Shown here: piece by piece, positions 3,862 through 51,281 of the stretch
How positions within the stretch are numbered: the stretch's first letter is position 1
Layout: every line of letters starts with the position of its first letter
NCBI GenBank assembly: GCA_963666285.1
Contig: OY762711.1
Strand: one strand, 5' to 3'
Source of the DNA: Sedimentisphaerales bacterium
GTDB lineage: Bacteria; Planctomycetota; Phycisphaerae; Sedimentisphaerales; SM23-30
Length of the DNA: 64,000 bases
Notes under the pieces: generated by a model
The model's input: only the letters and a program-made list of their open reading frames with translations
The model's database searches: none
Told to the model about the DNA's origin: nothing
Position numbers and translations under genes: made by a program

Positions 3862-5169
3862 TTATTCATCCGTTGGAGGGGTGACAACCGGTATGCATAC
3901 CGGGCTTCCGTTTATGGTATCCAACGCTGTAATTTCCTTTATTGCATTATCCATATTGCCTTGCTGAGCCATATCTGTCATGATGATTACAGGCACAAAG
4001 TCATGAGAACCGTGGACTTCCTGCTGAAGCATGCTCTGTATACTGATCTTATGACGGCCAAGAATTTCGGTCAGCTGGGCCATTACGCCGGCTCTGTCAG
4101 CGGCATTAATTCTCAGGTAGAACCTGCTGTATCTTTCCTCGGCAGGGCATAGTATTGCCGGCTCGGCATCTTTCCCCAGTCCTGCAGTTGTCTTAAATAT
4201 ACTGGCGGCATTACCGCGAGCAACATCAATCAAGTCTGCTACAACTGCACTGGCAGTAGGCATCATACCGGCTCCACGCCCCAGGTAAAGAGTGTGGCCG
4301 ACAGCATCACCAAAGATACTTACAGCATTAAACGGTCCGGATACTCTGGCAAGAGGTTCGTCATCATTAATGAATGCCATTTTAACCTGTATGGAAATGC
4401 CGTTTTCAGTTTTGTCGGCAATAGCCAGAAGTTTCATTGCATAGCCAAGTTTCTGACCGTAGATGATATCCTGAAGGTCTACTGACTCGATACCGCTGAA
4501 GGTAATGTCGTCATACACGATAGTGCTGCCAAAGGCGAGCATTGCCAGGATCGCAATTTTATGCGTACTATCTGCTCCATTGACATCCAGGGTCGGGTCG
4601 GCTTCTGCAAATCCTGCGGCCTGTGCTTCTTTTAATGCAGTGGCATAATCCTTGCCATGTTCGGTCATACTGCTCAGGATATAATTGCATGTTCCATTTA
4701 GTATTCCAAGCAGTGATGTAATGTTATTTGCGGCCAGTCCGGTATTGATTGAAGAAATAAGCGGGATACCACCGCAGCAGCTGGCTTCAAATGCAACTGT
4801 CTTTCCATTTTCTCTTGCCGCTGCAAATATTTCGTTACCTCGTTCTGCGAGAAGAGCTTTATTGGCGGTAACTACATTTTTGCCTGAAGCTATAATCTGC
4901 TTTTGAATATCGGCAGAAAAAGTCGTTCCTCCAACAAGGACCGCAACGGTATCGATTTCCGGGTTATTCAAAACTTTGTCCAAGTCGTCGTGCAGCAGCC
5001 CGGCAGGGATGCTTACACCTCGGTCACGGGTAATGTCTTTATCTATTATGTCAGTAATTTCGAACTCAATACCGGTACGTTTGGCAATAGAGTCTTTTTG
5101 TTCAAGTAATATTTTGGCAACGCCGGAACCGACTATGCCAAAGCCGACTATTGCAACTTTTGATTTCAT
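3862..5169 (-). CDS. hom: Homoserine dehydrogenase with C-terminal ACT domain
   Basis: GFGIVGSG Rossmann motif, VVTANKA, FEAS..GGIP, GILNGTCNYIL, GFAEADPTLDVNG.D...K, GRGAGMMPTASAV; ACT motif DRAGVMAQLTEILG. Confidence 0.95.
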   Translation of the reverse strand: MKSKVAIVGFGIVGSGVAKILLEQKDSIAKRTGIEFEITDIIDKDITRDRGVSIPAGLLHDDLDKVLNNPEIDTVAVLVGGTTFSADIQKQIIASGKNVVTANKALLAERGNEIFAAARENGKTVAFEASCCGGIPLISSINTGLAANNITSLLGILNGTCNYILSSMTEHGKDYATALKEAQAAGFAEADPTLDVNGADSTHKIAILAMLAFGSTIVYDDITFSGIESVDLQDIIYGQKLGYAMKLLAIADKTENGISIQVKMAFINDDEPLARVSGPFNAVSIFGDAVGHTLYLGRGAGMMPTASAVVADLIDVARGNAASIFKTTAGLGKDAEPAILCPAEERYSRFYLRINAADRAGVMAQLTEILGRHKISIQSMLQQEVHGSHDFVPVIIMTDMAQQGNMDNAIKEITALDTINGSPVCIPVVTPPTDE

Positions 5170-32284: not shown

Positions 32285-32440
32285 TAGTACCCTCTTTTTT
32301 TCAATCTACTTTTTATAATTTGCGGTCACAGTCTGCTATTCTGTTCAATTAATGCATTTATGCGTATATTTGGAATGGTTTAGACGGCTTTGGGCTGCAT
32401 AAAGGGAATTACTTTAGATATTTGTATCAGAGGAGATTTT

Positions 32441-33688
32441 ATGTCTCGATTATTAATTGTTTGCCTGGTATTACTTACCGGTTCTCTTTTTGCGAATGAC
32501 AATATATCAGGTTTTACCGAGCCTGGCGGTGAGCTTACACTTAAAAATGCTGTTGCTGCGACATTGCTTGGCAGTCCTCAATTACATGCCTATAGCAGCG
32601 AAATACGTTCGGCACGTGCCAGGCAGTTACAGGCCGGGCTAACCGCTGACCCGGAGCTGGAATTTGAGTTTGATGAGTTTGGCGGCAATAAATCATTTAG
32701 CGGACTTGATTCGATGGAAACCACTCTCAAACTGAGCCAGATAATTCAGTTTGGAGATAAGGTTGCGATCCGTGAAAAGGTATATTCTTATGATACTCTC
32801 CTGGCGGAGCTGGAATATGCGTCTAAAGAGCTTGATATATGTAAAGAAGTTGCAGACAGTTTTATAAAACTGCTGGTTGTTCAGAAAAAAATCGAATTGG
32901 CTGGTGAACAGGTTCAAATATGTAAAAAGATGGCTGATATGATTGATAAGCGGGTGCAAGCTGGAAAGACCGGTCCGCTTGACTATATGAAGGCAAAGAT
33001 GTTGCTGGCAAAGGCCGGGTTGGTTGAAAAACAGATTGTCGTGCATAAGGAATATCTGAGAAAGAAACTCGCATCACTCTGGGGCAGTCAGGAACCCCAA
33101 TTCGGCAGGTTGGCAGGTGATCTGGAAGAGTATAATAATGTGCCTCCGATTGCTGAGTTGGAAAAGATAATTGCCAATAATCCTGATATTAACCAATGGG
33201 CAGTAGAAATCCAGAAACGGCAGGCAAAGGCTGAACTGGCCAGGTCCCAGACCAGTCCGGATATAAAATTAAGCGGCGGAGTTAAATATTTTAACGAATC
33301 TGATGGGACGGCATTTGTTGTTGGGATAGGAATACCGCTAAGAAAACCGGTTCGTAATCGCCAGTTGGAATTAGAAGCCAGGCATGACCTCGAAACTGCT
33401 TCGCAGCAGCAGCGGAGCAACTATCTGCTTGTCTGGGGTGAGTTGAACAGGCTGCATAGTGAGTTGGCTAGTTCTTATGAGAAAGTGACAGTTATAAAGT
33501 CTGAGATTCTTAGTACGGCAAAGGAATTGTTTGAGGCGACAATGCTTTCGTATGAACAGGGTAAAGTGGATTATTTGTATTTACTGGATTCTCAGAGAAG
33601 TTACTTCTCTGTACAGGAGGAATATCTTGATGCTCTGGCAGAATACCATCTGAAAATGAATGAACTAGACAGGATAGCAGGCAATTAA
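32441..33688 (+). CDS. Heavy-metal RND outer membrane factor (CzcC-like)
   Basis: AGAGGAG RBS; QAGL..DPELE, RVQAGK, YEQGK..YL.LLDSQR; first gene of the tripartite set. Confidence 0.88.
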   Translation: MSRLLIVCLVLLTGSLFANDNISGFTEPGGELTLKNAVAATLLGSPQLHAYSSEIRSARARQLQAGLTADPELEFEFDEFGGNKSFSGLDSMETTLKLSQIIQFGDKVAIREKVYSYDTLLAELEYASKELDICKEVADSFIKLLVVQKKIELAGEQVQICKKMADMIDKRVQAGKTGPLDYMKAKMLLAKAGLVEKQIVVHKEYLRKKLASLWGSQEPQFGRLAGDLEEYNNVPPIAELEKIIANNPDINQWAVEIQKRQAKAELARSQTSPDIKLSGGVKYFNESDGTAFVVGIGIPLRKPVRNRQLELEARHDLETASQQQRSNYLLVWGELNRLHSELASSYEKVTVIKSEILSTAKELFEATMLSYEQGKVDYLYLLDSQRSYFSVQEEYLDALAEYHLKMNELDRIAGN

Positions 33689-33719
33689 AATTTGTAATGA
33701 AAATATATTGAGGTTTTAT

Positions 33720-35426
33720 ATGAGAAATAAAATAATATTATTAATGAGTTTATGTGTGGTATCGGTAACGCTGTTAATTATGGTTGTGGTGCCGTTAACA
33801 GCGGCTGAGGAAGTATGCAGCGAATGCAATACTTGTGCCGGAGTTGAGACACAGGATGCCCATTCTCATGATGAAGAGCTTGAGTCTGTGCATGATGGGC
33901 ATGTTGGCGAATATTCTGTTCATGAACTAGAAGCAGAGTCAACTGAAGGTCATGATGGACATGAGCATGAAGATTCAACTGGCGAAGATCACGCTGGTCA
34001 TGAAGAAGGTGCTATTCATTTAACTGCAGATGAAATTAAACTTATAGGAATTCAAGTTGTTGAAGTGGCCAAAGGTGAGATTCCCGAGTCTGCTAAATTA
34101 ACAGGTCAGGTGCAATTGAATGATGACAGGCTTGCGCATATCTCGGCATTGACGCCCGGCATTGTGCGACAGGTAAACAAAAGTACCGGTGACTCAGTTT
34201 CAGCAGGTGAGGTTTTGGCCTGGCTGGAAAGTGTTGAACTTGGACAGGCGAAGGTTGAGTACCTTGATATACTGGCAGAAGTCGGATGTTGTAAAACTCT
34301 ACTCGATAGAGCGCAAAATGTTAAAGACAATACAATAAAACTGATAGGTTTTCTGCGAACAAAGCCGACTTTGGATGAGTTAAAGAGTTTTGAGCCTTTA
34401 GAGATGGGTGAATATCGCAGTAAACTGGTTAAATCTTATGCAGAGTTTATTCTGGCCGGCAATGTATATGACAGGGAAAAAAAGTTGTTTAATCAGAAAA
34501 TATCCAGTCAGCAGGAATACCTGGATGCAGAAAATGCTCTAAAAAAAGCTGAGGCTGAGTATATCGCGGTCCAGGATATCTCTGAATTCCAGGTTAAGCA
34601 GGACTTGCTGGAAGAAGCGACCAATGCCCAAAGGATGGAGTTGGCTTTGAAGGGTGCCGAACGAAAACTTTACGTTTTAGGCCAGGATAAAAACGATATT
34701 AAAGGCCTGGTTCTTACAAGTTTGGTAAGCCGGGAAAATGAGGAATTTGACACATCCTGCCCTGATCCTGATTGTGAAGAATGTAAAAAGAAAGCTGCAT
34801 TGGTAAACAGCAGCAAGAAGCCGGCCATTTTTGAGCGGTTAGGCTGGTATCCGCTGCGTGCTCCTTTTGATGGTACAATAATAGAGAAGCATATTACTCT
34901 TGGCGAAAGGCTTGGTGAAGACCGATCAGCCTTTACTGTTGCTGATCTTAAGACCGTTTGGATTGACCTGGATGTATTTCCTAACGATCAGGCAAAAATA
35001 TTTAAAGGGCAAAAATGCCTGATAAATACCAATGGCAAAAGCTATCAGGGTAGTATAAGTTTCGTCAGCCCGGTACTTAACGCAAAAACACGAACTGCGA
35101 CTGCCAGGGTGGTAATCGGAAATAACGATTACGGCTTGAGACCAGGTCAGTTTGTTAATGCAGAAATTTATGGAGATACAGTTAAATATGACAGGGTGGT
35201 CCCCAGGGCGGCTGTGCAGACTGTTGCAGGCAGACAGGTGGTTTTTGTTAGTGATGGCGAAGATTATGAAATGAAGCCTGTTATCCTGGGTTATGGTAAC
35301 AGCCGGTTTGTTGAGATTGTTTCTGGTGTCAACTCAGGAGAGAAGGTAGTTTCCCAGGGGGCATTTGACCTGAAGGCTAAAGTTGTCACCAGTACTCTCG
35401 ATAGTCATGCCGGACATGGACACTAA
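33720..35426 (+). CDS. Heavy-metal RND membrane fusion protein (CzcB/CusB-like) with His/Cys-rich extensions
   Basis: His-rich N-terminus; LRAPFDGTIIEK, ADLKTVW, LRPGQFV; C-terminal HAGHGH. Confidence 0.9.
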   Translation: MRNKIILLMSLCVVSVTLLIMVVVPLTAAEEVCSECNTCAGVETQDAHSHDEELESVHDGHVGEYSVHELEAESTEGHDGHEHEDSTGEDHAGHEEGAIHLTADEIKLIGIQVVEVAKGEIPESAKLTGQVQLNDDRLAHISALTPGIVRQVNKSTGDSVSAGEVLAWLESVELGQAKVEYLDILAEVGCCKTLLDRAQNVKDNTIKLIGFLRTKPTLDELKSFEPLEMGEYRSKLVKSYAEFILAGNVYDREKKLFNQKISSQQEYLDAENALKKAEAEYIAVQDISEFQVKQDLLEEATNAQRMELALKGAERKLYVLGQDKNDIKGLVLTSLVSRENEEFDTSCPDPDCEECKKKAALVNSSKKPAIFERLGWYPLRAPFDGTIIEKHITLGERLGEDRSAFTVADLKTVWIDLDVFPNDQAKIFKGQKCLINTNGKSYQGSISFVSPVLNAKTRTATARVVIGNNDYGLRPGQFVNAEIYGDTVKYDRVVPRAAVQTVAGRQVVFVSDGEDYEMKPVILGYGNSRFVEIVSGVNSGEKVVSQGAFDLKAKVVTSTLDSHAGHGH

Positions 35427-35524
35427 TACAGGTTATCCGTAACTGATTCTATCTGATATGAAAATTATATAGGTATAATATGGACCGTCATATACAGAAC
35501 CACATAATATAAAGGTAAAATGCA

Positions 35525-38500
35525 ATGCATGTTAAATTGATAAATGTTTCAGTAAAGTATCGTCTTTTGGTTTTGCTGGCGATATTGTTTGTTACTTCTT
35601 TTGGCGTTTACGAATATAAACAGCTGCCCGTAGGTGCGTTTCCGGACATTTCTCCGGTAATGGTGCCAATATTTACAGAGGCTGATGGAATGGCACCGGA
35701 AGAAATAGAGCGACTGATCAGTTTTCCGATAGAATCTGTTATGAATGGACTTCCGAGAGTTGAACAGGTAAAATCTACCTCTGCTTTTGGCATGTCGGTG
35801 GTATATGTATATTTCAAAGATAATACTGATCTCTATTTTGCCCGACAGATAGTGGATGAGCGTCTGAACGAAGCTATGGCAAAAATGCCGAATCTGGTGG
35901 ATAAGCCCAAACTTGGGCCTGTTTCTACCGGTTTAGGCCAGATATTTATCTATTATCTTGAGGCTGATGATTCCGTTGACACAGAAGGTAAAGATAAATT
36001 AAGCTACCTTAGAGACCTTAACGACTGGGTTGTTAAATATCAGTTGCAAATGGTCAAAGGTGTAACTGATATTTTGAGTGTGGGCGGTTATGTTTTGCAA
36101 TATCAGGTTGATATAAATCCTAACCTGCTTATGCAGTACGAGCTGACTTTACAGGATGTTGTAGAGGCGATAAATTCTAACAATGCCAATGTTGGCGGTC
36201 AGTATATTGTCTCCGGCCAGGAAGAGAACCTGGTTCGCGGTATTGGCCTGGTAAAAAGCAGGGAAGATATCGGGGCAATAACAATACGAACATATAATGG
36301 TACGCCCGTTCGAATCAGTGATGTAGCTGAAGTTAAATTTGGTAGGGAAATCAGGCGCGGGGTAGTATCCCGTAATGGAGAACAGGAGGTAGTCTCTGGC
36401 ATTGTTATGCAGCTATACGGCGAAAACACATCTGAAGTTATTGAAAGATTGTATGATATAGTGCCTTTAGTTCAGGCATCGCTGCCCGATGGGGTGAAAA
36501 TTGTTCCTTATTATGAACAGCAGGAGCTGGTCCAGAAAGCGACACATACTGTTAAGACGGCTCTTCTGCAGGGTGCTGTGCTGGCAGCGATAGTGCTGTT
36601 CCTTTTCCTGGGGAATTTACGGACCGCTCTCGTGGTAGTGTTTGCTTTACCGTTCAGCTCGCTTATTGCGATTATCCTTATGCGTGCAGCGGGGATATCG
36701 GCTAATCTTATGTCGCTGGGCGGGGTAGCGATAGCGATGGGTATGCTTGTTGATGGTGCTATTGTCATGGCCGAAAATATATTTCGTCATTTGAATACAA
36801 ATGACCAGGATGATCTGAGGCATAGAACTGATATTATAATGGAAGCAGCGGTTGAAGTTGCCAAACCCATTATATTTGCATTGTTAATTGTGGTTGTTGT
36901 CTTTGTTCCTATCCTGACATTAGAAGGAGTTGAAGGTAAGATGTTTATTCCAATGGCCCAGACACTTTGTTTTGGCCTGTTGGGCTCATTGATATTTGCT
37001 GTTTTGATTGTTCCGCCTCTTTGCAGCTATTTACTTCATACTGGTGTTCATAAAGAGTTTTTTCTTTTTAGCTGGCTGAAAAAGCAGCATGATCCGCTAT
37101 TGTATTTTGCCGTAAAGCGCCCACTGGTCGTACTGTTGCTGGTGATAGGACTGATTGCTGTTAGTTGTGTTATGCTGCCAAATATCGGTACCGAATTTAT
37201 CCCGACTTTGGAAGAAGGTTCGATAATGATTGGTGTTACGATGGCACCTGGTATATCACTTGATAAAGCTGTTGATACTATTCAGCGTTTGGAACGCAGT
37301 ATAACTGAGTTTGATGAAGTAGAAGAGGTCGTCTCACGTATCGGAAGACCCGAGGCAGGCAGTCATCCGCATCCTGTGAATTATGCCGAGGTACATATCG
37401 AGCTGCTTCCGCAGAATCAATGGCAGTCAACCGGTTCCAAGGCTGAACTTATTGAAAAGATCGAGGCGAAACTCAAACATTATCCCGGTTTGCAGCTTAA
37501 TTTTACTCAGCCTATCCAGAATGCTTTTGATGAGCTGCTTAGCGGTGTCAAAGCCCAGGTTGCGATCAAGGTTTATGGTGAAGATCTTGACATTTTACAG
37601 AAAAAAGCTGCTGAGATCAAAAACACTATCGACAATATTGAAGGGTTGGCAGATTTGTCTCTGGAACAAAGCAACGGGCAGCCCCAGGTGCAGGTCATTG
37701 CAGATCGACAGGCTTGTGCAAGGTATGGAGTCAATATAAGTGAAATTCTTGAACTGGTAGAAGCTGCTGTCGGTGGTAAGGTGGTTGATAATGTTTATCT
37801 CAATACCAGGAGGTATGGTATACAGGTGCGATATCAGCAGCAGTTTAGAGATGACATTGAACAGATCAGTAACCTGATGGTAAATACTTCCGATGGCAGC
37901 CGTGTGCCTTTGAGCCATGTTGCCGAGGTCAAAAAAACGCTGGGTCCGATTCAAATAAATCGTGAGAATAACCAGCGCCGCTGGGTTATACAAGGTAATA
38001 TTCGCAACCGGGATCTGGGTAGTGTTGTAGCCGAGATCAAAGATCGAATAGCTGAAAAAATTGAACTGCCGGCCGGCTATCATGTTGAATACGGCGGCCA
38101 GTTTGAAAGTCAGGTGAGGGCAATGACACGGCTGGCAGTTATTATACCAGTTGTTATATTTATGATTTTCTTTATGCTGTTTCTTGCGTTTGGCTCAGTA
38201 AAAAGTTCATTGCTGGTAATGATAAATATTCCGCTTGCTCTGATTGGCGGTGTTTTTGGTTTGTACCTTATGGGAGAATATTTATCAGTACCTGCGGCAG
38301 TTGGTTTTATCGCTCTTTTTGGAATTGCTATCCAGGACAGTATGGTTCTTGTAACTTGTATTGGCCAGTTGTCGGAAAGTATGAATCTTCGTGATGCTGT
38401 TATCAACGGCTGCCATCAAAGGTTCAGGCCGGTTGTTATGACTTCAATTACGACGGTTCTTGGACTTATGCCGTTGCTGCTGGCCAGTGGTATTGGTGCA

Positions 38501-38611
38501 GAAGTGCAAAGACCATTAGCTGTTGTGGTAGTATTTGGCCTGATATCATCAACCTTCCTGACATTATTTGTTATCCCGTCATTTTATAATGTAATAATGA
38601 AAGAGAAATGA
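35525..38611 (+). CDS. Heavy-metal efflux RND permease (CusA/CzcA family)
   Basis: AFPDISP, LGPVSTGLGQI, MSLGGVAIAMGMLVDGAIVMAEN, LEGVEGKMF, GAEVQRPLA. Confidence 0.94.
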   Translation: MHVKLINVSVKYRLLVLLAILFVTSFGVYEYKQLPVGAFPDISPVMVPIFTEADGMAPEEIERLISFPIESVMNGLPRVEQVKSTSAFGMSVVYVYFKDNTDLYFARQIVDERLNEAMAKMPNLVDKPKLGPVSTGLGQIFIYYLEADDSVDTEGKDKLSYLRDLNDWVVKYQLQMVKGVTDILSVGGYVLQYQVDINPNLLMQYELTLQDVVEAINSNNANVGGQYIVSGQEENLVRGIGLVKSREDIGAITIRTYNGTPVRISDVAEVKFGREIRRGVVSRNGEQEVVSGIVMQLYGENTSEVIERLYDIVPLVQASLPDGVKIVPYYEQQELVQKATHTVKTALLQGAVLAAIVLFLFLGNLRTALVVVFALPFSSLIAIILMRAAGISANLMSLGGVAIAMGMLVDGAIVMAENIFRHLNTNDQDDLRHRTDIIMEAAVEVAKPIIFALLIVVVVFVPILTLEGVEGKMFIPMAQTLCFGLLGSLIFAVLIVPPLCSYLLHTGVHKEFFLFSWLKKQHDPLLYFAVKRPLVVLLLVIGLIAVSCVMLPNIGTEFIPTLEEGSIMIGVTMAPGISLDKAVDTIQRLERSITEFDEVEEVVSRIGRPEAGSHPHPVNYAEVHIELLPQNQWQSTGSKAELIEKIEAKLKHYPGLQLNFTQPIQNAFDELLSGVKAQVAIKVYGEDLDILQKKAAEIKNTIDNIEGLADLSLEQSNGQPQVQVIADRQACARYGVNISEILELVEAAVGGKVVDNVYLNTRRYGIQVRYQQQFRDDIEQISNLMVNTSDGSRVPLSHVAEVKKTLGPIQINRENNQRRWVIQGNIRNRDLGSVVAEIKDRIAEKIELPAGYHVEYGGQFESQVRAMTRLAVIIPVVIFMIFFMLFLAFGSVKSSLLVMINIPLALIGGVFGLYLMGEYLSVPAAVGFIALFGIAIQDSMVLVTCIGQLSESMNLRDAVINGCHQRFRPVVMTSITTVLGLMPLLLASGIGAEVQRPLAVVVVFGLISSTFLTLFVIPSFYNVIMKEK

Positions 38612-38613
38612 TA

Positions 38614-41202
38614 TCAGTTAACCGGTATGCCGAGAAATTCGTAACTTAGCTTATTTTGCAGAGCTGATACCGTATTAAGCGAGTCCCGAAGTTTCTGACA
38701 TTCTGCCGCAGTTAGTTTGTCCAGCTCAAGTTCGTCATTGACCTCGCGCAGGTCGGAATGGCATATAATCTGGTTATAGAAACGCAGATACCATAAGTGG
38801 TCAAATACCAGGATATTATCTTTTAATGATTCACTGGAGAGTATTTCCTTTTCAGCCAGCATATTTAAACGATCCAGTGTGGATGGTTTACCGATATTAT
38901 ATTTTAATGCAAAGATACGGGCAAAATTAACGATCGGAACAATACAGTCTTTCAGGTTCAGACTTTTTACACCATCCTGGGTTTCTGTTTTCAAATAGCC
39001 AAAGGCATTTAGTGGTATATCGTAGCTTAAGCAGTTGCGTGCCATATGGAGATAGAATTCCGGGTTTTCTCGCGTAATTTCCATCATATGCCTGTGCAGC
39101 TCGTTTGTAAGTTCTTCACTGCCGTAAATACAGCTGATGTCAAAGAATGTATGAATATCCAGAACAGACTCATCAAACTTCTGGATTGTCTTATGGGTGA
39201 ATTTATCTTTCCATTCAGAAAGAGTCATACACCACCTCGGGTTAATTGCCATTATACCACCTGGACAGAATTTATACCCGGCCCGGTCAAGCATAGTACA
39301 GACTCTGTCTGCGAGCTTAAGGAAATATCGCTTTACTGAAGTTGTATCATCACTATTGATATCTTTAATGATTATTGCATTATCCTGGTCAGAGAACATT
39401 GTCATTTCACGGCGAGCGTTACTGCCTAGTGTAAGGAATGCAAATTCAGCTGGTGGTTCTCCAATCTCGTCTATTGCCATTTTTATCAGTTTGACCATTG
39501 CAGTTTCAAATATCTTGCAAAGCGAGTCGCGAATTGCCGATGATTTAACTCCGTGGAGAGTCATCTCCCGTACCATTGCCGGAATATTGCTTAGCGAATG
39601 GACAATATGTCCTATCGTGTCACCAGATTCAATTTCCAGCTGTATACCTGCCGGCAGTTCACTATAGTTCTGGATCTGCTGGTAAAGCTTGCCGTCATTA
39701 TCAAGGGTTGCCCTGGTGATTTTTCTTACTGATATAACATGTCCGTTTTTTTCGGATAGAAATATCTTGGATGCTGCCATTATAACATCAGTTTTAATAC
39801 CGGTTTTTGTCAGCAGCTGAGCTTCAAATTCTGCCGCTGATATGTCACCTGCAATGATTTTTTCCAGCTGGCCGATAGCATTTTTATTAATCCTGTTATT
39901 GGCCGGCAGGAGTTCCTTCCATATTGCTACCGATGCCAGTTCCTGTTCATTGTAGCCGGTCATTCTTTGTAATGTGATATTGGAATACATGTTTTTACCA
40001 TCGACAAGCAGGATATATCCTTCGTTCGACGCTTCCACAAGAGCTCGATACCTGTCCTTGGCTTCAATAAGGCCGCGTTCGGCATAAATTCGTTCGTTTT
40101 CTATTTTATAGCTTTGCGAGATTACATATAAAATGATGGCAAATAATACTATCGATATTAACAGGAACACCCAGAGCAGGTCGTAGGTCAGCCCTTGTAT
40201 TTCAGCTTCGACATCATGGATATATATACCTGTTCCTACTATCCAGTTCCATTCTGGAACCAGTCGTACATAAGATAATTTTGGCTCATGATGCTTTTCA
40301 TCGTCTTTCCATTGCCAGAGATATCTTAGATATCCTTCTCCGCCTTGCTCTTCAACTATTTTTACAAACTCAACAAATAACTTCTTTTTACTTTTGTCTT
40401 TTATATCAACGTAGTTTGTTAAATCTGCTCCGTTAAGTTCGGGAAGGTAGGGGTGCATGACCATTCGTGGGTGAGTGTCAGTTATCCAAAAATAGTCTTT
40501 GAGTTCCGGCCCGTACCGCATTTCGCCAACTTCTCTTGCTGCGGTTTGCTGAGCCTCCTCAAGCGTCATTTTACCGCTTTTACTTAATTTGATATAGTGC
40601 TCAATTACGCTGTCTGCTGCCAGGGTGAGCTCTTTTATCATCACCTTCCGGTCTTGCAGCATCTTATTCTGAAATACTGGTATGATCAGGGTAAAGATTG
40701 ATATGATAAACAGGGCGGTAGCAGTGAGAGTAGGAAGTACTATTTTAAGGTGGAAGCTTGTAAGATTTTTTTGATTTTTCTGTTTTTTCTTTTGATAGTA
40801 TTCTTTTCCCTTAAAATACTCTGCAAGCTCTACTTCGCTCAGTATTTGTTCCTGGGCAGATTTTTCTTCGCTTTCATGGTATTTTTCAGTAAAGGTTCCA
40901 TTTTTGAAATCATCTCGGCTTGGCAGATAGCCGTTGTAGTCGTCTTTAAGATGACATTCAAAAACGTTTTTTATGAGCTTTCGACTGTATTTTCCTTCAA
41001 ACTCATTATATGCATCTTCTAAAGCTTCTTTGCAATGACGGAACTTTCGATGTTCGTAAGGGTCATAGCTGTCTGTGTTGCCAGATCGTAGAAACTGTCC
41101 GAAGCTTTCATGGTCAAAGAAACCATCTATCCATTTATGGATATCTTCCGCTCTTGTGCCAAATAGCTTTTCTGTTCGTTCAGCATGTTCAGATATTTTC
41201 AT
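38614..41202 (-). CDS. Membrane sensor: DUF6915-like N-terminus, TM, single Cache, TM, PAS, DUF294/DUF294_C nucleotidyltransferase
   Basis: IHKWID, HRKFRH, HLKDDYNGYLPS; YFWITD..MVMHP, PKLSYV..WNWIVGTGIY; YRALVEASNEG..N..TGY; LGSNARREMTMFSDQDNA, CPGGIMAINPRW, FFD, LNLK, TLDRL. Confidence 0.8.
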   Translation of the reverse strand: MKISEHAERTEKLFGTRAEDIHKWIDGFFDHESFGQFLRSGNTDSYDPYEHRKFRHCKEALEDAYNEFEGKYSRKLIKNVFECHLKDDYNGYLPSRDDFKNGTFTEKYHESEEKSAQEQILSEVELAEYFKGKEYYQKKKQKNQKNLTSFHLKIVLPTLTATALFIISIFTLIIPVFQNKMLQDRKVMIKELTLAADSVIEHYIKLSKSGKMTLEEAQQTAAREVGEMRYGPELKDYFWITDTHPRMVMHPYLPELNGADLTNYVDIKDKSKKKLFVEFVKIVEEQGGEGYLRYLWQWKDDEKHHEPKLSYVRLVPEWNWIVGTGIYIHDVEAEIQGLTYDLLWVFLLISIVLFAIILYVISQSYKIENERIYAERGLIEAKDRYRALVEASNEGYILLVDGKNMYSNITLQRMTGYNEQELASVAIWKELLPANNRINKNAIGQLEKIIAGDISAAEFEAQLLTKTGIKTDVIMAASKIFLSEKNGHVISVRKITRATLDNDGKLYQQIQNYSELPAGIQLEIESGDTIGHIVHSLSNIPAMVREMTLHGVKSSAIRDSLCKIFETAMVKLIKMAIDEIGEPPAEFAFLTLGSNARREMTMFSDQDNAIIIKDINSDDTTSVKRYFLKLADRVCTMLDRAGYKFCPGGIMAINPRWCMTLSEWKDKFTHKTIQKFDESVLDIHTFFDISCIYGSEELTNELHRHMMEITRENPEFYLHMARNCLSYDIPLNAFGYLKTETQDGVKSLNLKDCIVPIVNFARIFALKYNIGKPSTLDRLNMLAEKEILSSESLKDNILVFDHLWYLRFYNQIICHSDLREVNDELELDKLTAAECQKLRDSLNTVSALQNKLSYEFLGIPVN

Positions 41203-41337
41203 ATACTAACCGTTGAGCAAAAATGCCCAGAAAAGTGCATAATTTAGACGTTTATAAATGCCGGACTTAATTTCAAAGTATTCACATACCCTATTATCGG
41301 GATGATATGGCTTTGTCAGGATTTTTTGAGATTATTA

Positions 41338-42039
41338 TCATCTCACCAGAAAGTCTTTAAGGATTTCCAGCATTATTTTACTGTCTGGTAGAACTTTAAG
41401 CGATTCAATGGCTTTTCTGGCTACTTCTTCTCCAAAATGCGCAGAATGTTTTTTGATCAATTTATGGGTAAAATTGGTGTTAAATTCCGGATGAGCCTGC
41501 AAACCAAGAATGTTATTCCCAACCGATATCATTGCATTGGGGCAGTGGTCGGCCTGAGCCAGAACTTTAGCCTCCGATGGCAGGATCGTAACCTGATCGG
41601 CATGGCTGAAGTGTAAATGCAGATTACTCGGCACAGGATCTGTAAACAGATGCCGGTTAAGGTGGAGGTTCAGACAGCCAATCCCCCATCCGCCCGGGGC
41701 CTTTTCTACTTTGCCTCCCAATGCTTTTCCGATCATCTGGTGGCCGAAACATATACCAATAAGCTTGCTTTCGCCATTATTATAGATATCCTGGATGAAA
41801 TTTCCCAGGTCATATATCCATAAGTCTGGATCGTAAGCACTGTTGTAAGAACCCATTACGGCATAGCCGGTGAAATCAGAAACCGAGGATGGTAAGTCTC
41901 CCCGTTTACAGTCAAATATCTCATATTCCGGCTTAAATCCAATAGAATTAAAGCTTTCGATCATCATTTCGCCAAATTCTGGTTCATTGTCCAGAGTTTC
42001 TGATACGTGTTCGCAATCTAGGATAGCTAGTCTTTTCAT
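41338..42039 (-). CDS. Class I glutamine amidotransferase (GMP synthase-like, stand-alone)
   Basis: VMGS, GICFGHQ nucleophile elbow, HADQV, QAHPEF. Confidence 0.92.
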   Translation of the reverse strand: MKRLAILDCEHVSETLDNEPEFGEMMIESFNSIGFKPEYEIFDCKRGDLPSSVSDFTGYAVMGSYNSAYDPDLWIYDLGNFIQDIYNNGESKLIGICFGHQMIGKALGGKVEKAPGGWGIGCLNLHLNRHLFTDPVPSNLHLHFSHADQVTILPSEAKVLAQADHCPNAMISVGNNILGLQAHPEFNTNFTHKLIKKHSAHFGEEVARKAIESLKVLPDSKIMLEILKDFLVR

Positions 42040-42254
42040 TTTGTTTCTTTTATTGGGTTAATATGTCAAATAATAAATTTATATGTTAGATTCTAGCATT
42101 AAAATGCAGTTGGGTAAATATTTATACATTGCTTTTTTTGTCTAAAATTAGAATGTTAACTTGTTAATTTTATTATTTTTTTGTAACCTTTAGTTTTCTC
42201 ATGCGTCTAATATATTACTTGTTGTATTTTACTTATACGCTTTCATGGAATCTT

Positions 42255-43670
42255 ATGATGAAAAAACTAATGATTGTTCTTTTTATTTTAGTGCTGTTAG
42301 GTTTAATTGGCTTTGCAGCTATTAAACAGAGTGAGGCTAATAAAGACAGGTCGGTAAAGGTACGTGTAAATAAGCCTGAATTAGGAAAACTTGTTGAAAC
42401 CATTAGTGCTCCTGGTGAAATCAAACCACTTCATAGTGTTACTATTAGCGCTAAAATCTCAGGTAAGGTTATTGAACTGCCGTTTGAAGAAGGTGACGCC
42501 GTCTTTGGACCAGAATCTGGTCGTGAACCTTCAGTTCTGGTAAATATTGACAGTAGCGACCTGGAATCTGATCTTAATATCAGCCAGGCCCGTCGTGAAT
42601 CCCAGGTTATGCAAATTGAAGTTGCCAAGGTTGATATTGAAAACAGGGAATCCAGCCTTCGCGAAGCAGAAATTCAGCTTGCCCAAAAAGAAAAAGACCT
42701 GGAACGTAGTTTGAAGCTGCTGCAAAGTAACGATGTCACTGAAACTTCAGTTGAAGAGCTGCAGGTTGCTGTTGAACAGTTAAAGATCAAGGTTAAATCT
42801 AGCCAGAATGCAATTAAGGTTGCTAAAGTTGACTTGAAAGTGAGGGAAAATGAGCTAAAAATAGCTGATTCCAATATCCAGAGAGCCAAAGATGCCTTGG
42901 AATATGCCGAAATTTCTTCGCCTATGTCAGGTGTGATTACTCAGATTCATGTGAAAGCCGGCGAGATGGTAACTGGTGCCGTTAATTATACCGGTACTCC
43001 TATGATGGTTGTTGCCGATCTGTCAAAGATGCTATTAGCCGCAAAGGTTGACGAAATTGATATTGGCAAGGTTAAAGAAGGGCAAAAAGCCAAGGTTAAG
43101 CTTCATGCCTGGCCGGATGAAAGATTTGAAGGGGTTGTTCATAAGAAATCGCTGGTTTTGCTTGACAGCCGCACCGGTTCAAAGGTGTGTGATGTTGAGA
43201 TAATGCTGGATAATGCCGATGGCCGTATACTTTCGGGCATGACAGCTGATGCTGAGATTGAAATTAAAGTTCACGAAAACATTTTGACTGTCCCGTCACA
43301 GTCAGTTCTTGGTTGTGAGTGGGAAACGCTTCCTAAAGAAATTCGTGATGGCAGCGAGCTTATAAATAAGGAAAAAACATATACTCCAGTTGTTTTCCGT
43401 CTTATTGATGGCAAAGCTCATGCTACTCCTGTCAGGATTGGTCCAAGTGATCTTACAAATACTGTAATCGAAGCCGGACTTTCAATAGATGACCTGGTTG
43501 TGACAGGCCCTTATAAAGAGCTTGAACAAATGAATCATGGCAAGATAATCAAGGATGAGAATGCTAAAGAGGATAGGCAGGGCGATAAAGACTTCGCTGA
43601 CAAAGCTGATGACCAGGAGGTCGATAAAGATAACTCAGAAGATAGCCAATCAGAAGAACCGGTTCAGTAA
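42255..43670 (+). CDS. MacA-like periplasmic adaptor subunit
   Basis: N-terminal TM; ISAKISG, coiled coil, ISSPMSG, VDEIDIG, GMTADAEI; acidic tail. Confidence 0.88.
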   Translation: MMKKLMIVLFILVLLGLIGFAAIKQSEANKDRSVKVRVNKPELGKLVETISAPGEIKPLHSVTISAKISGKVIELPFEEGDAVFGPESGREPSVLVNIDSSDLESDLNISQARRESQVMQIEVAKVDIENRESSLREAEIQLAQKEKDLERSLKLLQSNDVTETSVEELQVAVEQLKIKVKSSQNAIKVAKVDLKVRENELKIADSNIQRAKDALEYAEISSPMSGVITQIHVKAGEMVTGAVNYTGTPMMVVADLSKMLLAAKVDEIDIGKVKEGQKAKVKLHAWPDERFEGVVHKKSLVLLDSRTGSKVCDVEIMLDNADGRILSGMTADAEIEIKVHENILTVPSQSVLGCEWETLPKEIRDGSELINKEKTYTPVVFRLIDGKAHATPVRIGPSDLTNTVIEAGLSIDDLVVTGPYKELEQMNHGKIIKDENAKEDRQGDKDFADKADDQEVDKDNSEDSQSEEPVQ

Positions 43671-44383
43671 TGTTTGAAGGTAATATGCTAATTAAATTAG
43701 AACAAATACAACGTCAATATAAAATGGGTTCTGAAACTGTTCATGCTCTGGATTTTGTTGATCTTGAAATAAATGAAAATGAATATGTTGCAGTTATGGG
43801 TGCTTCCGGGTCAGGCAAGAGCACGCTCATGAATATTATTGGATGTCTGGACCGTGCTACCGGCGGTAAATATTTACTTGATGGCCAGGATACTACTCGG
43901 ATGAATGCCGCCCAGCTTGCTTCAGTTCGCAACAAGCAGATAGGTTTTGTCTTTCAGACTTTTGAACTGCTGCCCAGGACCAGCGCTCTGAAAAACGTCG
44001 AAATGCCGCTGATATACTCGAAAGGAACCGCCTGGCATAAACGCCGCAGCCTTGCGATGAAGGCCCTGGAAAAGGTTGGTCTTCAGGACAGGGTTACTCA
44101 TAAACCCAATCAAATGTCTGGCGGAGAGCGGCAGAGGGTAGCCGTTGCCAGATCTTTGATTTGTGAACCCAGTATTCTGCTTGCCGATGAGCCTACCGGT
44201 AATCTGGATAGTAAAAATAGCGAGATTATCCTGAACCTGTTCGATAATTTGCACAATGAAGGGCAGACTATTGTTATGGTCACTCATGAAGAAGATGTGG
44301 CTAAACATGCAAAGCGTATTATTCGCATGAAAGATGGCAGAATTGTTTCCGATGAAACCGGGGAAGGCGGTGCGGTTAAATGA
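43670..44383 (+). CDS. MacB/LolD-type ABC ATP-binding protein
   Basis: GASGSGKST, MSGGERQR, LADEPTGNLD, VTHE. Confidence 0.94.
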   Translation: MFEGNMLIKLEQIQRQYKMGSETVHALDFVDLEINENEYVAVMGASGSGKSTLMNIIGCLDRATGGKYLLDGQDTTRMNAAQLASVRNKQIGFVFQTFELLPRTSALKNVEMPLIYSKGTAWHKRRSLAMKALEKVGLQDRVTHKPNQMSGGERQRVAVARSLICEPSILLADEPTGNLDSKNSEIILNLFDNLHNEGQTIVMVTHEEDVAKHAKRIIRMKDGRIVSDETGEGGAVK

Positions 44384-45636
44384 TAATATTGCGTTTTGTC
44401 TATCATATATTTGTTTTTCTGATCCAGAGTGTCCTTCTTGCTCTTGGACAGATCAGGTCAAATAAAACCAGGTCTGTTCTTACTACCGTTGGTATTGTTA
44501 TAGGCGTTGCCTCGGTTACAGCTGTTATTGCTTCATTGGCCGGACTGAAAGCAAAGGTACTTACCGAGTTTCAGGGATACGGCAGCAATATGATCTGGGT
44601 TTCACCGGATAGGCCCAAGGAGGGACCCTGGAAAAATGTTTCCTGGGAGAAAATCAGACTCTATCCAAGTGAATTTGATGGTGTTCTGGATAAGTGCCCA
44701 TCTATTGAAGTCTATAGCTTATGTACCGATCACTATGGTATGTCGGCCAGTTTTAGCGATCAGCAGTTGGATAATGTGCGACTCAGAGGTATCGGCCATT
44801 CAATGTTCGAGATTGAAAAAAGGAAAATTGTTCTCGGCAGACCGTTTTCTGTTATCGATCAGGAACAAAAACGGCAGGTCTGTCTTATTACCAAAACAGT
44901 ACAGCAGCAGTTGAAATTAAATAAAGATTGTATTGGTCAGCTTATTGACATTCAGGGAAAGACTTTTAATGTTATTGGTGTTGTTGAAGAGAAAAACTCT
45001 GTGTTTGATATGGGCAATGCCGGCAAAGAGATCTTTATCCCTTTTGAAACGGCATGGAAATTATGGCGACCATGGATGCATGTTATGCTCAACAGCAAAG
45101 CTCCCGAAGTTACTGAAGAAGGACTTGCCGAGCTTCGTTTCTTTTTAAGGACTAAAAAACGTGTATATCCCGGTGATGCAGAGCCGTTTAGAGTTCAATC
45201 GCTGGAGAATGAATTGGAAAAATTTAACAAGCTTTCCAGTGCAGTAACAGCTATTGCTGGCGGGGTAGTTAGTGTTTCCTTGCTGGTTGGTGGTATAGGT
45301 ATTATGAATATCATGCTGGTTTCTGTTTCAGAACGTACCAGGGAAATCGGCCTTCGGAAAGCAGTTGGGGCCAGACCTTCTGCTATTATGCTTCAGTTCT
45401 TGATCGAAGCTATAGTGTTATGTTTGTTAGGGGGGCTTATCGGTATTGGTCTTGGTTATTTGTTGACCCTTGGAATCAGTAAAATACCTGATGCTCAACT
45501 TGAAAAAGCCTTTGTCCCTATGTGGGCTATATGGCTGGCGTTTGGTTTCTCTGCTTTTGTTGGTATTTTCTTTGGTTTTTTCCCGGCGTTCAAAGCGTCC
45601 AGGCTTGACCCGATCGCGGCTCTAAGGTATGAGTAA
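44380..45636 (+). CDS. MacB-type ABC permease
   Basis: RSVLTTVGIVIGVASV, LLVGGIGIMNIMLVSVSERTREIGLRKAVGA, PAFKASRLDPIAALRYE. Confidence 0.94.
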   Translation: MIILRFVYHIFVFLIQSVLLALGQIRSNKTRSVLTTVGIVIGVASVTAVIASLAGLKAKVLTEFQGYGSNMIWVSPDRPKEGPWKNVSWEKIRLYPSEFDGVLDKCPSIEVYSLCTDHYGMSASFSDQQLDNVRLRGIGHSMFEIEKRKIVLGRPFSVIDQEQKRQVCLITKTVQQQLKLNKDCIGQLIDIQGKTFNVIGVVEEKNSVFDMGNAGKEIFIPFETAWKLWRPWMHVMLNSKAPEVTEEGLAELRFFLRTKKRVYPGDAEPFRVQSLENELEKFNKLSSAVTAIAGGVVSVSLLVGGIGIMNIMLVSVSERTREIGLRKAVGARPSAIMLQFLIEAIVLCLLGGLIGIGLGYLLTLGISKIPDAQLEKAFVPMWAIWLAFGFSAFVGIFFGFFPAFKASRLDPIAALRYE

Positions 45637-45663
45637 AACTTACTTTTTTGTTTAAGGTGTGTT

Positions 45664-47301
45664 GTGATAATGGTTAATAAAAAATATTATATATTTTTAC
45701 TTGTTGTGTGTTGTGCTGTTGCAGGTTGCGTTGAGAAAACTCGTCTGGATAAGTACGATACAACTAAGTTTAACACAAAACAGCTAAGTGTTATCGATAA
45801 GGTTGAACTTCAGCCGGCAGAAGACCAGTCTATGGACCGCGCCCCAAACTTTTTTAGTGAACCACAGGAGATTCCCAAAGAGCTTTCTATCGAAAAATGC
45901 CGTCAGTTAGCCTTGCAAAATAATCTCGATCTGAAAGTCAGCCTGATCGAACCTGAAATTGCCCGCGAAGATCTTAAGGCAGCCCATGCTGCTTTTGAAC
46001 CGCTATTTGTTTCAGGATTTAATTTTATTACAAATGATTTCCCTGATGAATATGACGAGACTGAACGTGTCAGTAGTTATGGCAGGTTAAATTTCCCGTT
46101 AGTTACTGGAGGTGATGTTAGTTTCTATTTCCCTTTTAGTAGAACTCAAAAAGAAGGTCAGGACTATTATTACACTGACCCTGTTACAGGTGAAACTACC
46201 TTAATTCAACAGCAAAACAGCTATTATGATACTGATTTTTCTATTAGCTTTTCTCAACCTCTGCTTAGAGGTGGAGGAATATCCGTTAATACTAACTATA
46301 TTCGCCAGGCAAGTTATAATGCTAAGTCCAAGCTGGCTCAGGCGAAACTTCAGGCAATGTGGATTCTTTCTGCCATTGATCGGGCATATTGGTATTTATA
46401 CGCGGCACAGGAAGTTCTTAAAGTGCGAAAGTTAGACTATGACCTGGCTAAGGCTCAATATGACCAGGCTAAACGAATGGTTGATGCCGGCCAGATGAAA
46501 GAAATAGAGGTTATCAGGGCCGAATCTGCCCTGGCTGAGCGGCTTAATGGCATAATTAAAGCTGATAATAACCTGAGAGATCGACAAAGAGATTTGAAAC
46601 TGATTATAAATTCTCCTGATATGGCACTGGAGTCAGATTTCGTCTATATTACTGATACTGAGCCTGTACCGGTTAAGTATAATGTTGATCAGAACGAAAT
46701 GCTGGAATATGCCATGAACCGACGTGTTGAACTGTTTCAGGTAGAGCTTTCGCTGGCTTCCAGTGAAAGTGCTATAGAGTATCAAAAGAATTCTCTGCTG
46801 CCTTACCTTGGTCTGGAATATACCTATAATATTAGTGGCTCTGGATATAATTCTAATGCTGCTTTTGATCAGTTAGATAATAATAGTTTTAAAGATTATT
46901 CTTTAGGGCTGTCTTTGCAAATTCCACTTGGTAATCAGGTTGCCAAAAGCAGCTATCGAAAGGCAATCCTGCAAAAACAGATTGTTGAAACGAATAAACA
47001 GTTGCAAATCAGGACAATTACCCAGGAAGTATTGAATGCTGTTGATGCTCTTGAGTCTAATTGGAATGCTGTTTTAGCTTCACAGAAAAGTGCCGAACTG
47101 GCTCTGCGTACTCTGGAAGCTGAGCAGCGGCAATTTAAGCTTGGCATGCAGACTTCAACCGAAGTCCTAAACGCCCAGACAAGATATGCCAATACATTGC
47201 TTTCCAGGTTGCAGGCGCTGGTAGATTATCAAATTTCTCAGGTTGACCTCTGTGCTGCTGTAGGTGGGTTGAATCAGGCTGCAAGACTTAGCTTTGATTA
47301 A
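45664..47301 (+). CDS. TolC-family outer membrane protein (lipoprotein)
   Basis: VAGC lipobox; ALQNNLDL, SQPLLRG, AEQRQFKLG..T..EVL.AQ. Confidence 0.88.
   Translation: MIMVNKKYYIFLLVVCCAVAGCVEKTRLDKYDTTKFNTKQLSVIDKVELQPAEDQSMDRAPNFFSEPQEIPKELSIEKCRQLALQNNLDLKVSLIEPEIAREDLKAAHAAFEPLFVSGFNFITNDFPDEYDETERVSSYGRLNFPLVTGGDVSFYFPFSRTQKEGQDYYYTDPVTGETTLIQQQNSYYDTDFSISFSQPLLRGGGISVNTNYIRQASYNAKSKLAQAKLQAMWILSAIDRAYWYLYAAQEVLKVRKLDYDLAKAQYDQAKRMVDAGQMKEIEVIRAESALAERLNGIIKADNNLRDRQRDLKLIINSPDMALESDFVYITDTEPVPVKYNVDQNEMLEYAMNRRVELFQVELSLASSESAIEYQKNSLLPYLGLEYTYNISGSGYNSNAAFDQLDNNSFKDYSLGLSLQIPLGNQVAKSSYRKAILQKQIVETNKQLQIRTITQEVLNAVDALESNWNAVLASQKSAELALRTLEAEQRQFKLGMQTSTEVLNAQTRYANTLLSRLQALVDYQISQVDLCAAVGGLNQAARLSFD

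Positions 47302-47357: not shown

Positions 47358-51281
<3,924 letters not shown>

Follow-up and report, generated by a model that had tools for sequence, protein, structure and literature searches.

A 64,000-nucleotide stretch of the genome of a Sedimentisphaerales bacterium (contig OY762711.1 of assembly GCA_963666285.1), hereafter the window, contains on its minus strand a gene (38614..41202) for a predicted two-pass inner-membrane receptor of 862 residues. Judged from its sequence, the receptor joins a Cache sensor domain of the C2/C3-carboxylate type to a PAS domain and a DUF294 nucleotidyltransferase, and it bears at its N-terminus a small His/Asp-rich domain (N-domain). Our preferred model, to which we give about an even chance, is that of a carboxylate-sensing Cache receptor balancing nucleotidyl transfer by DUF294 against nucleotide removal by the N-domain, with an acceptor that controls monocarboxylate uptake.

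Sensor and output modules of the receptor

The gene is a single uninterrupted frame with an ATG start, and its product contains, in order, a DUF6915-like domain, a transmembrane (TM) helix, sCache_2, a second TM helix, PAS, DUF294 and DUF294_C. The initial annotation had described this layout with a single Cache domain, and the list of open reading frames (ORFs), Pfam and hydropathy bear it out. The N-domain (residues 1–112; 40867..41202, this and all following receptor coordinates on the minus strand) is separated from the Cache domain by TM helix 1 (about residues 154–177; 40672..40743), and TM helix 2 (about residues 342–362; 40117..40179) leads to the PAS domain. Both segments are recognised by sequence and hydropathy. 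In the full-length AlphaFold2 model (mean predicted local distance difference test, pLDDT, 83.7) they form long helices (148–208 and 328–390) running into the Cache and PAS domains. A Lys-rich stretch (residues 137–153) directly precedes TM helix 1, from which we infer that the N-domain and the PAS-nucleotidyltransferase part are cytoplasmic and the Cache domain periplasmic.

This architecture is widespread. Of 8000 proteins scored in a word-indexed search, 1935 reached E ≤ 1e-3, and all of the best 120 listed contain sCache_2, DUF294 and DUF294_C. The N-domain is likewise present in 120 of 120, since its residues form invariant columns of their alignment. One of these homologues is full-length with 85% identity, while the closest named ones among the matches listed are Phycisphaerae/Sedimentisphaerales metagenome-assembled genomes (MAGs) at 58–60%; database annotation gives the homologues generic names. 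A genome scan with one genome per species found at least 602 matching stretches, at least 564 of them encoding relatives, and the best 80 were analysed as loci. More than ten phyla are represented among the relatives, with Vibrio, Agarivorans and Desulfobacter as cultured examples, and the record titles name Verrucomicrobiota, Kiritimatiellales/Pontiella, Planctomycetota, Fibrobacterales, Cloacimonadota, Spirochaetes, Desulfobacter, Bacteroidota, Ignavibacteria, Myxococcales and many cultured Vibrio and Aliivibrio species. Within the order the distribution is patchy: full-length orthologues without internal stops occur in four of 30 genomes (G001, G002, G015 and G017), and the search of the remaining 26, one of them a 98%-complete genome of the same genus, yielded none. 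The host genome has one DUF294 gene. The earlier concern that the architecture might be confined to one assembly is thus removed. An assembly chimera or a decaying gene has a negligible chance, as the frame is open, the 85%-identical homologue exists, the architecture recurs in 120 of 120 homologues and the four orthologues lack stops; no point in its favour was found.

The sCache_2 domain (residues 182–336; 40195..40659; Pfam E 2.1e-33, 115.9 bits) is closely related to sensor domains of solved structure. Searches with phmmer match it to acetate-bound Adeh_3718 (PDB 4k08, E 1.7e-29) and to PscD (PDB 5g4y, E 4.7e-26), and Foldseek superimposes it on 4k08 with a TM-score of 0.93, a root-mean-square deviation of 1.2 Å and 37% identity. 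According to the PscD report (PMC5062169), PscD binds glycolate, acetate, propionate and pyruvate; Y90, H103, Y143 and K156 form hydrogen bonds, W92 and W145 sandwich the ligand, F126 forms the back wall, and all seven residues are identical in McpP and Adeh_3718. In the HMMER alignment to 5g4y, the residues Y90, W92, H103, F126, Y143, W145 and K156 described there correspond to Y237, W239, H250, F276, Y294, W296 and K308 of the receptor, identical at seven of seven positions. Conservation of the pocket was assessed in 72 receptor-cluster proteins of at least 750 residues from the best 80 loci, of which one outlier without the Cache residues (L080_1) was dropped. Six positions never vary among the 71 receptors, and position 239 is Trp in 55, including the receptor studied here, and Phe in 16. 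The proposal that this Cache domain senses small carboxylates is thus strengthened, and acetate or another C2/C3 monocarboxylate is, judging by the sequence, its likely ligand. The same genome encodes a second Cache protein outside the window, in an open frame of 931 residues, whose Cache domain (G000:C1:5829109-5829612) is 39% identical.

The PAS domain (residues 381–497; 39712..40062) is identified by the NCBIfam model TIGR00229 sensory_box (34.3 bits, cut-off 22.9) and by PAS-like strands in the structural model. PAS_9 matches residues 394–488 at E 6.8e-4, below the Pfam cut-off, and is matched in 54 of 54 homologues scanned.

The output module consists of the DUF294 core (residues 539–672; 39187..39588; PF03445, E 1.7e-40, 138.5 bits, cut-off 21) and the helical, HEPN-like DUF294_C domain (residues 715–856; 38635..39060; PF10335, E 2.5e-28, 99.2 bits, cut-off 22.5), named in Pfam a putative nucleotidyltransferase substrate-binding domain. 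The catalytic motif G593-S594-x10-D605-x-D607 (LGSNARREMTMFSDQD; 39382..39426), reported earlier as intact, is present, and the alignment of homologues adds a third acidic residue, D688 (39137-39139). None of the five residues varies in the 120 homologues or in the 71 receptors from genome contigs, which speaks against an inactive nucleotidyltransferase. In Foldseek searches with the full-length model, the best neighbour outside the Cache and PAS regions is the AMPylation domain of DrrA (6yx5_B; E 1.6e-10, 327 columns, TM-score 0.62 on the target, 19% identity to the output module), followed by the GlnE halves (1v4a, E 2.3e-9; 3k7d_B, E 2.5e-8). In Pfam scans of the 54 homologues, SidM_N is matched by six (best E 3.8e-8) and GlnD_UR_UTase, weakly, by 13. 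The NCBIfam equivalog models of GlnD give 10–10.7 bits (E 0.1–0.16) against cut-offs of 631–799 and so do not class the protein as GlnD. In addition, DUF294_C shares a Pfam clan with the C-terminal helical domains that GlnD and GlnE possess (PMC3710099). Sequence and model together thus identify the DUF294 module as an intact GlnE/DrrA-like nucleotidyltransferase.

The N-domain and its candidate stand-ins

No other part of the protein is as well conserved in the 120-homologue alignment as the N-domain. Residues P48, Y49, H51, R52, R55, H56, E82, H84, D88, D98 and H109 are invariant, and H6, H22, D26, D30 and D87 recur in 90% or more of the sequences. The His/Asp residues pointed out in the initial annotation are therefore real and strongly conserved. 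The domain's own match to DUF6915 (PF21866, residues 1–101) stays below threshold (E 0.027; 15.1 bits, cut-off 27), and 33 of 54 homologues match the family at E ≤ 1, the best at 7.3e-5. A phmmer search with residues 1–110 against 1.84 billion representatives found 53 proteins at E ≤ 1e-3, comprising receptors, fragments and stand-alone proteins of 106–122 residues; two SEA-domain proteins among the matches are spurious. When 20 non-receptor matches were scanned, eight exceeded the DUF6915 cut-off of 27, at 31–43 bits (P0155, P0156, P0160, P0163, P0167, P0170, P0171 and P0172; phmmer E 1.9e-17 to 5e-4). Because bona fide DUF6915 proteins are found among its matches, the N-domain is, by transitive homology of sequence, a divergent DUF6915 member; the earlier label "DUF6915-like" holds through these relatives and not through the domain's own score.

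Comparison with the stand-alone proteins narrows the conserved set. In an alignment of 20 sequences (the receptor N-domain, one stand-alone ORF from a receptor locus, L055, and 18 small proteins), H6, H22, D26, R52, H56, H84 and D88 are invariant in all 20, stand-alone DUF6915 proteins included, and G15, W24, H51 and F68 are nearly so. The N-domain is modelled as all-helical (pLDDT 74), with H22/D26 and H84/D88 each one helical turn apart, an arrangement that would suit a metal site. No HD family was matched at E ≤ 1 in the Pfam scan, and the acidic partner lies at i+4 (H22xxxD26, H84xxxD88) in place of an adjacent HD pair. The analogy to the HD domain of GlnD drawn in the initial annotation stands at the level of function only; no HD motif was found, nor any HD chain among the structural matches listed.

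Stand-alone DUF6915 proteins look phage-associated from their sequence relationships. Among the 30 nearest ESM Atlas clusters, 28 are DUF6915, most of whose members with a record are viral, and the stand-alone proteins (P0155–P0173) match phrog_8143, which has no assigned function. A tblastn search of the receptor N-domain against phages gave no match. A weak tblastn match (E 1e-4 to 6e-4) leads to a hypothetical gene in Tsamsa-like Bacillus phages (L088, KC481682.1, locus 3983-4396) and to a Gordonia phage; in the Tsamsa-phage context only hypothetical proteins were found nearby. No mention of DUF6915 was found in the literature search.

Receptors without the N-domain provide the main clue to its role. 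An N-domain hidden Markov model matched 36 of 668 ORFs of at least 90 residues in the best 80 loci, namely 35 receptors and one ORF of 111 residues. The latter, in a Victivallales MAG (L055, 5985-8882), begins 3 nt past the stop of a receptor lacking the N-domain, so that the module found at the 5′ end of other receptor genes is here a gene of its own, downstream. In total, 37 proteins of at least 750 residues in these loci lack the N-domain, so its pairing with the receptor is not universal. They comprise the outlier L080_1, three proteins cut at or close to the contig start with an uncertain N-terminus (L025, L029 and L043), the L055 receptor, three Desulfobacter paralogues beside an N-domain receptor (L011_0, L011_4 and L030_7), four with a PHP domain or PHP-like gene, and 25 further complete receptors. 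In three of the four, a PHP domain is fused before TM helix 1 (L061, E 1e-5; L072, E 1.5e-10; L078, E 6.8e-9), in the same N-terminal position as the N-domain; in the fourth (L051), a PHP-like ORF of 224 residues, related to the L072 N-terminus (blastp 1e-34), lies directly upstream. Among the 25 further receptors, 11 have a Metallophos gene and nine an AP_endonuc_2/CbiR-like TIM-barrel gene at ±1, so that one or the other adjoins 20 of 25. A receptor split into two ORFs (L074) has a Metallophos neighbour as well. Conversely, none of the 35 N-domain receptors has a PHP, Metallophos or CbiR-like gene at ±1, a figure resting on cluster labels and a Pfam scan of 36 unclustered neighbours.

The Desulfobacter loci show both forms side by side. 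One (L011) encodes an N-domain receptor of about 861 residues and two paralogues of 830–831 residues without the domain, and the other (L030) an 864-residue N-domain receptor, an 830-residue paralogue without it and a receptor-cluster ORF of 494 residues. The N-domain copies are of the F239 type, and all three 830–831-residue paralogues are of the W239 type.

The best NCBIfam matches of the partner proteins, all below cut-offs, point to nucleotide-related phosphodiesterases. The TIM barrel is nearest to the CbiR phosphodiesterase (E 1.5e-17); one Metallophos group to a "putative phosphoesterase" and then, weakly, to cAMP phosphodiesterase; the other Metallophos group to a YfcE-type phosphodiesterase; and the L072 PHP domain to 3′,5′-nucleoside bisphosphate phosphatase and RNase RNM. 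Moreover, PP_0354 of Pseudomonas, a soluble protein with cyclic nucleotide monophosphate (cNMP)-binding, CBS and DUF294 domains, shares an operon with the RNase T-like exonuclease PP_0353 (PMC9927547). By their sequences, five unrelated phosphoesterase types (DUF6915, PHP, Metallophos, CbiR-like and RNase T-like) thus appear to fill one slot and to exclude each other, which is our main argument for the N-domain as an enzyme reversing the nucleotidyltransferase. By this analogy it is predicted to be a metal-dependent phosphodiesterase that removes the nucleotide. The idea of an eraser, put forward in the initial annotation, gains comparative support from the three PHP swaps, the esterase genes adjoining 20 of 25 receptors and their absence beside all 35 N-domain receptors.

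Two other roles for the N-domain have to be weighed against this evidence. It could be non-enzymatic and give the receptor a second, cytoplasmic input, whether by sensing metal, redox state or oxygen or by serving in regulation or dimerisation. Its invariant H, HxxxD, (H)xxxxH and HxxxD elements on four helices resemble the metal-binding residues of di-metal sensors with a helical fold, hemerythrin-like domains among them; many carriers are anaerobes by their record titles, and the domain is small (about 110 residues) with no hydrolase fold match. We consider this role unlikely, as the mutually exclusive swap with three unrelated phosphoesterase families would be hard to explain, invariant R52 and nearly invariant K53 and R55 beside the His residues suit an anionic substrate, and no hemerythrin match appeared in the Pfam or fold searches. 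Alternatively, the N-domain could itself be the acceptor, a small PII-like module nucleotidylated on a conserved tyrosine. Its size, its occurrence as a separate gene beside the L055 receptor and the invariance of Y49, Y72 and Y89 among the 120 receptors would fit. The three tyrosines, however, no longer count as invariant or nearly so when stand-alone DUF6915 proteins join the alignment, whereas the His/Asp set stays; many receptors lack the domain and have esterases instead, and the mostly viral DUF6915 clusters are unlike a dedicated substrate. We therefore regard an acceptor role as very improbable. A complex prediction of the N-domain (residues 1–112) with the nucleotidyltransferase module (residues 500–862) gave a score of 0.00 without controls and weighs neither way on binding.

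Transporter neighbours and the proposed mechanism

Genes beside the receptors point to carboxylate uptake. The commonest neighbours in the best 80 loci are SSF symporters (39 loci), with a small DUF485 (20) or DUF4212 (14) protein; the 10-segment membrane protein DUF3360 (16 loci) and putative porins are also common. The receptor-adjacent SSF proteins are best matched in NCBIfam by MctC, a monocarboxylate transporter, and ActP, below the equivalog cut-offs, and DUF3360 found no match among PDB sequences. Particularly, pocket type and transporter type go together: DUF3360 is encoded within ±3 genes of 16 of 16 F239 receptors, and an SSF gene or that of its DUF485/DUF4212 small subunit within ±3 genes of 34 of 55 W239 receptors. 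This association is in line with earlier work: symporter genes of the DUF4212 type, with lactate or D-alanine as substrate, show cofitness with a COG2905 gene close by (10.1101/072470), and the soluble COG2905 proteins Pflu5625 and PP_0354 belong to the CrbS/R (MxtR/ErdR) acetate regulon (PMC5715377, PMC9927547, 10.64898/2026.09.07.749794). Two further neighbours were observed. A conserved protein of about 420–440 residues follows the symporter genes in many loci (cluster c5, 11 loci; for example L042 12904-14217); its start resembles a signal peptide, it lacks TM segments, neither Pfam nor NCBIfam gives a match, and its sequence suggests that it may be an outer-membrane channel. In one locus (Vibrio hannami, L041 8582-9988) the neighbour is the protein adenylyltransferase SelO (Pfam E 2.3e-109), which is probably a coincidence.

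In the model we prefer, the periplasmic sCache_2 domain would bind acetate or another C2/C3 monocarboxylate, and the signal would pass through TM helix 2 and the PAS domain to shift the balance between writer (nucleotidyltransferase) and eraser (N-domain). DUF294 would transfer a nucleotide, AMP or UMP, onto an acceptor, presumably a protein as for GlnE, GlnD and DrrA, which is the weakest step; the N-domain, as a metal-dependent phosphodiesterase, would take it off again, and the output would adjust the expression or activity of monocarboxylate uptake.

A different product would change this scheme. DUF294 could make a diffusible nucleotide messenger, cyclic or linear, that the N-domain and its stand-ins degrade and cNMP-binding proteins read. 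The best matches of every partner esterase type act on nucleotides (bisphosphate phosphatase/RNase RNM, cAMP phosphodiesterase, CbiR and RNase T-like), and the soluble relatives have a cNMP-binding domain. Moreover, a Crp-type regulator (cNMP_binding and HTH_Crp_2) adjoins the receptor near the symporter genes in seven Bacteroidota-type loci (L042, L046, L057, L062, L070, L074 and L077), generally between receptor and transporter genes and, in L077, on the far side of the symporters; in all but L070 a Metallophos gene adjoins the receptor too. Against a messenger, the nearest solved folds are protein AMPylases, and DUF294_C belongs by its clan to the C-terminal helical domains seen in GlnD and GlnE. 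The cNMP-binding domain of the soluble proteins takes the place of Cache and PAS and reads more simply as an input, and the Crp-family neighbours are restricted to one lineage, with none near the receptor studied here. We hold a messenger to be possible, though rather unlikely.

Several observations weigh against the preferred model of a nucleotidylated acceptor and a phosphodiesterase N-domain. The similarity to GlnE and DrrA leaves the acceptor unfixed, and neither nucleotide nor acceptor can be read from sequence. Fold searches with the N-domain model, as proposed earlier, assigned no fold: Foldseek found no PDB match at E ≤ 1e-3, and thus no phosphoesterase fold, and VIA-align against 48,161 chains reached Z 4.8 at most, for coat proteins of archaeal viruses; the 50 matches listed for this model of pLDDT 74 include neither HD nor hemerythrin chains. 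Likewise, a profile built from the N-domain and DUF6915 found no relative among PDB sequences, a ribosomal match at E 0.14 being spurious. Five of the 25 receptors without N-domain or PHP (L047, L060 at a contig end, L069, L070 and L071) and the three Desulfobacter paralogues have no recognisable adjacent esterase. Deletion of Pflu5625 or PP_0354 caused no acetate defect and moderate propionate or pyruvate defects (PMC5715377, PMC9927547, 10.64898/2026.09.07.749794). Moreover, no transporter gene adjoins the receptor here; its flanks are an upstream class-I glutamine amidotransferase (GATase) gene and a convergent resistance-nodulation-division (RND) efflux gene, which are not conserved receptor neighbours in the best 80 loci. 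The host's DUF485 and SSF pair, whose SSF protein is 65% identical to receptor-adjacent symporters, lies 2.2 Mb away. Even so, the distribution of the two genes speaks for a link: among the 30 relatives, four have both the receptor and the symporter orthologue, three the symporter only, none the receptor only and 23 neither. Because kin genomes are not independent, these counts overstate the link, and the co-occurrence is suggestive only.

The remaining surroundings of the gene were also inspected. GATase, HlyD and AcrB were rejected as partners, having no counterparts beside the receptor in the 80 loci save one weak match and one RND gene, and a reading as a defence system was dropped, with no PADLOC model matched. 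No DEDDh/RNase T-like exonuclease gene flanks the receptor here, the flanks being the part of the window covered for RNase_T. In the region 38300-42300, a promoter scan found 14 promoter-like sites against 12.1 expected, which is at chance level, and a terminator scan found none. On the plus strand, the convergent RND gene, whose stop codon is separated from that of the receptor by 2 nt, belongs to a three-gene efflux set (32390-38611) encoding an OEP protein, a 572-residue HlyD/CusB-type fusion protein and the 1028-residue RND pump (ACR_tran, E 1.3e-285). With the strikingly His/Asp/Glu-rich N-terminal stretch and C-terminal HAGHGH tail of the fusion protein, the set looks, by sequence, like a metal-ion efflux system. 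Beyond the receptor, on the same plus strand, lie a MacAB-TolC-like set (42201-47301; HlyD-type fusion protein with an acidic tail, ABC ATPase, MacB_PCD/FtsX permease and OEP) and a 1306-residue GH2 beta-galactosidase (47361-51281) that carries an F5/8 type C (discoidin) domain at its C-terminus.

Significance and relation to known systems

For decades, DUF294/COG2905 proteins have carried the annotation "signal-transduction nucleotidyltransferases", and to our knowledge no substrate, product or role of theirs is known. The literature search found no functional study under the name DUF294 and none on the membrane form. The membrane form adds what soluble DUF294 lacks, an input domain with a predictable ligand (acetate or other C2/C3 acids), and it offers a predictable target pathway as well, namely ActP/MctC-type or DUF3360 transporters whose type co-varies with a pocket residue. 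In a broader and tentative view, which we find possible but doubtful, Cache-PAS-DUF294 receptors and their interchangeable esterases (DUF6915, PHP, Metallophos, CbiR-like and RNase T-like) would constitute an unrecognised, phylum-spanning pathway in which carboxylate import is governed by a nucleotide mark or messenger whose level depends on a short-chain carboxylate outside the cell, and DUF6915 would be a new class of very small metallophosphodiesterases that phages also carry. If true, this would give functions to DUF294, DUF6915 and possibly DUF3360, and nucleotidylation or a new nucleotide signal would join the known outputs of bacterial transmembrane receptors. Our analysis newly finds that the W239/F239 split follows the transporter type, that a set of His/Asp residues is invariant throughout the family, that the N-domain also exists as a gene of its own, that DUF6915 is biased towards viruses, and that receptor and symporter co-occur where the two genes are unlinked.

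Among the closest known proteins are the soluble COG2905 proteins (cNMP-binding, CBS, CBS, DUF294 and DUF294_C; Pflu5625 of P. fluorescens and PP_0354 of P. putida/alloputida), which have the same DUF294 and DUF294_C output. They share with the receptors the ties to the metabolism of acetate, propionate and pyruvate and to symporters of the ActP or DUF4212 type, as well as the pairing with a phosphodiesterase. Unlike them, the receptor is membrane-bound; Cache and PAS replace the cNMP-binding and CBS domains, neither of which was matched in the receptor by Pfam at E ≤ 1 (CBS occurs in 18 of 54 membrane homologues), and a DUF6915-type domain is fused here, in contrast to the separate exonuclease gene PP_0353. 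A recent preprint describes the soluble DUF294 proteins as biochemically uncharacterised and calls the role of PP_0353/PP_0354 unclear (10.64898/2026.09.07.749794).

Other relatives resemble parts of the receptor. The small DUF6915/phrog_8143 proteins have the seven-residue set H6, H22, D26, R52, H56, H84 and D88 (20 of 20), whereas the receptor N-domain is fused and scores below the Pfam cut-off (15.1 versus 27). PscD (5g4y/5g4z), McpP and Adeh_3718 (4k08) share the seven pocket residues and the same two-TM topology; the receptor differs in having a nucleotidyltransferase as output, not a methyl-accepting chemotaxis protein signalling domain. DrrA/SidM of Legionella (6yx5) is the closest structural neighbour of the output module, a likeness at the level of fold, and is a secreted effector acting on host Rab1 rather than a sensor. 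Of the features of GlnD and GlnE, the receptor has the nucleotidyltransferase fold of GlnE, the G-S...D-x-D motif and a helical C-terminal domain of the same clan, and its writer and predicted eraser would likewise be held in one chain; unlike in GlnD, no HD domain was matched in it by Pfam, and its predicted input is an extracellular carboxylate in place of glutamine or PII.

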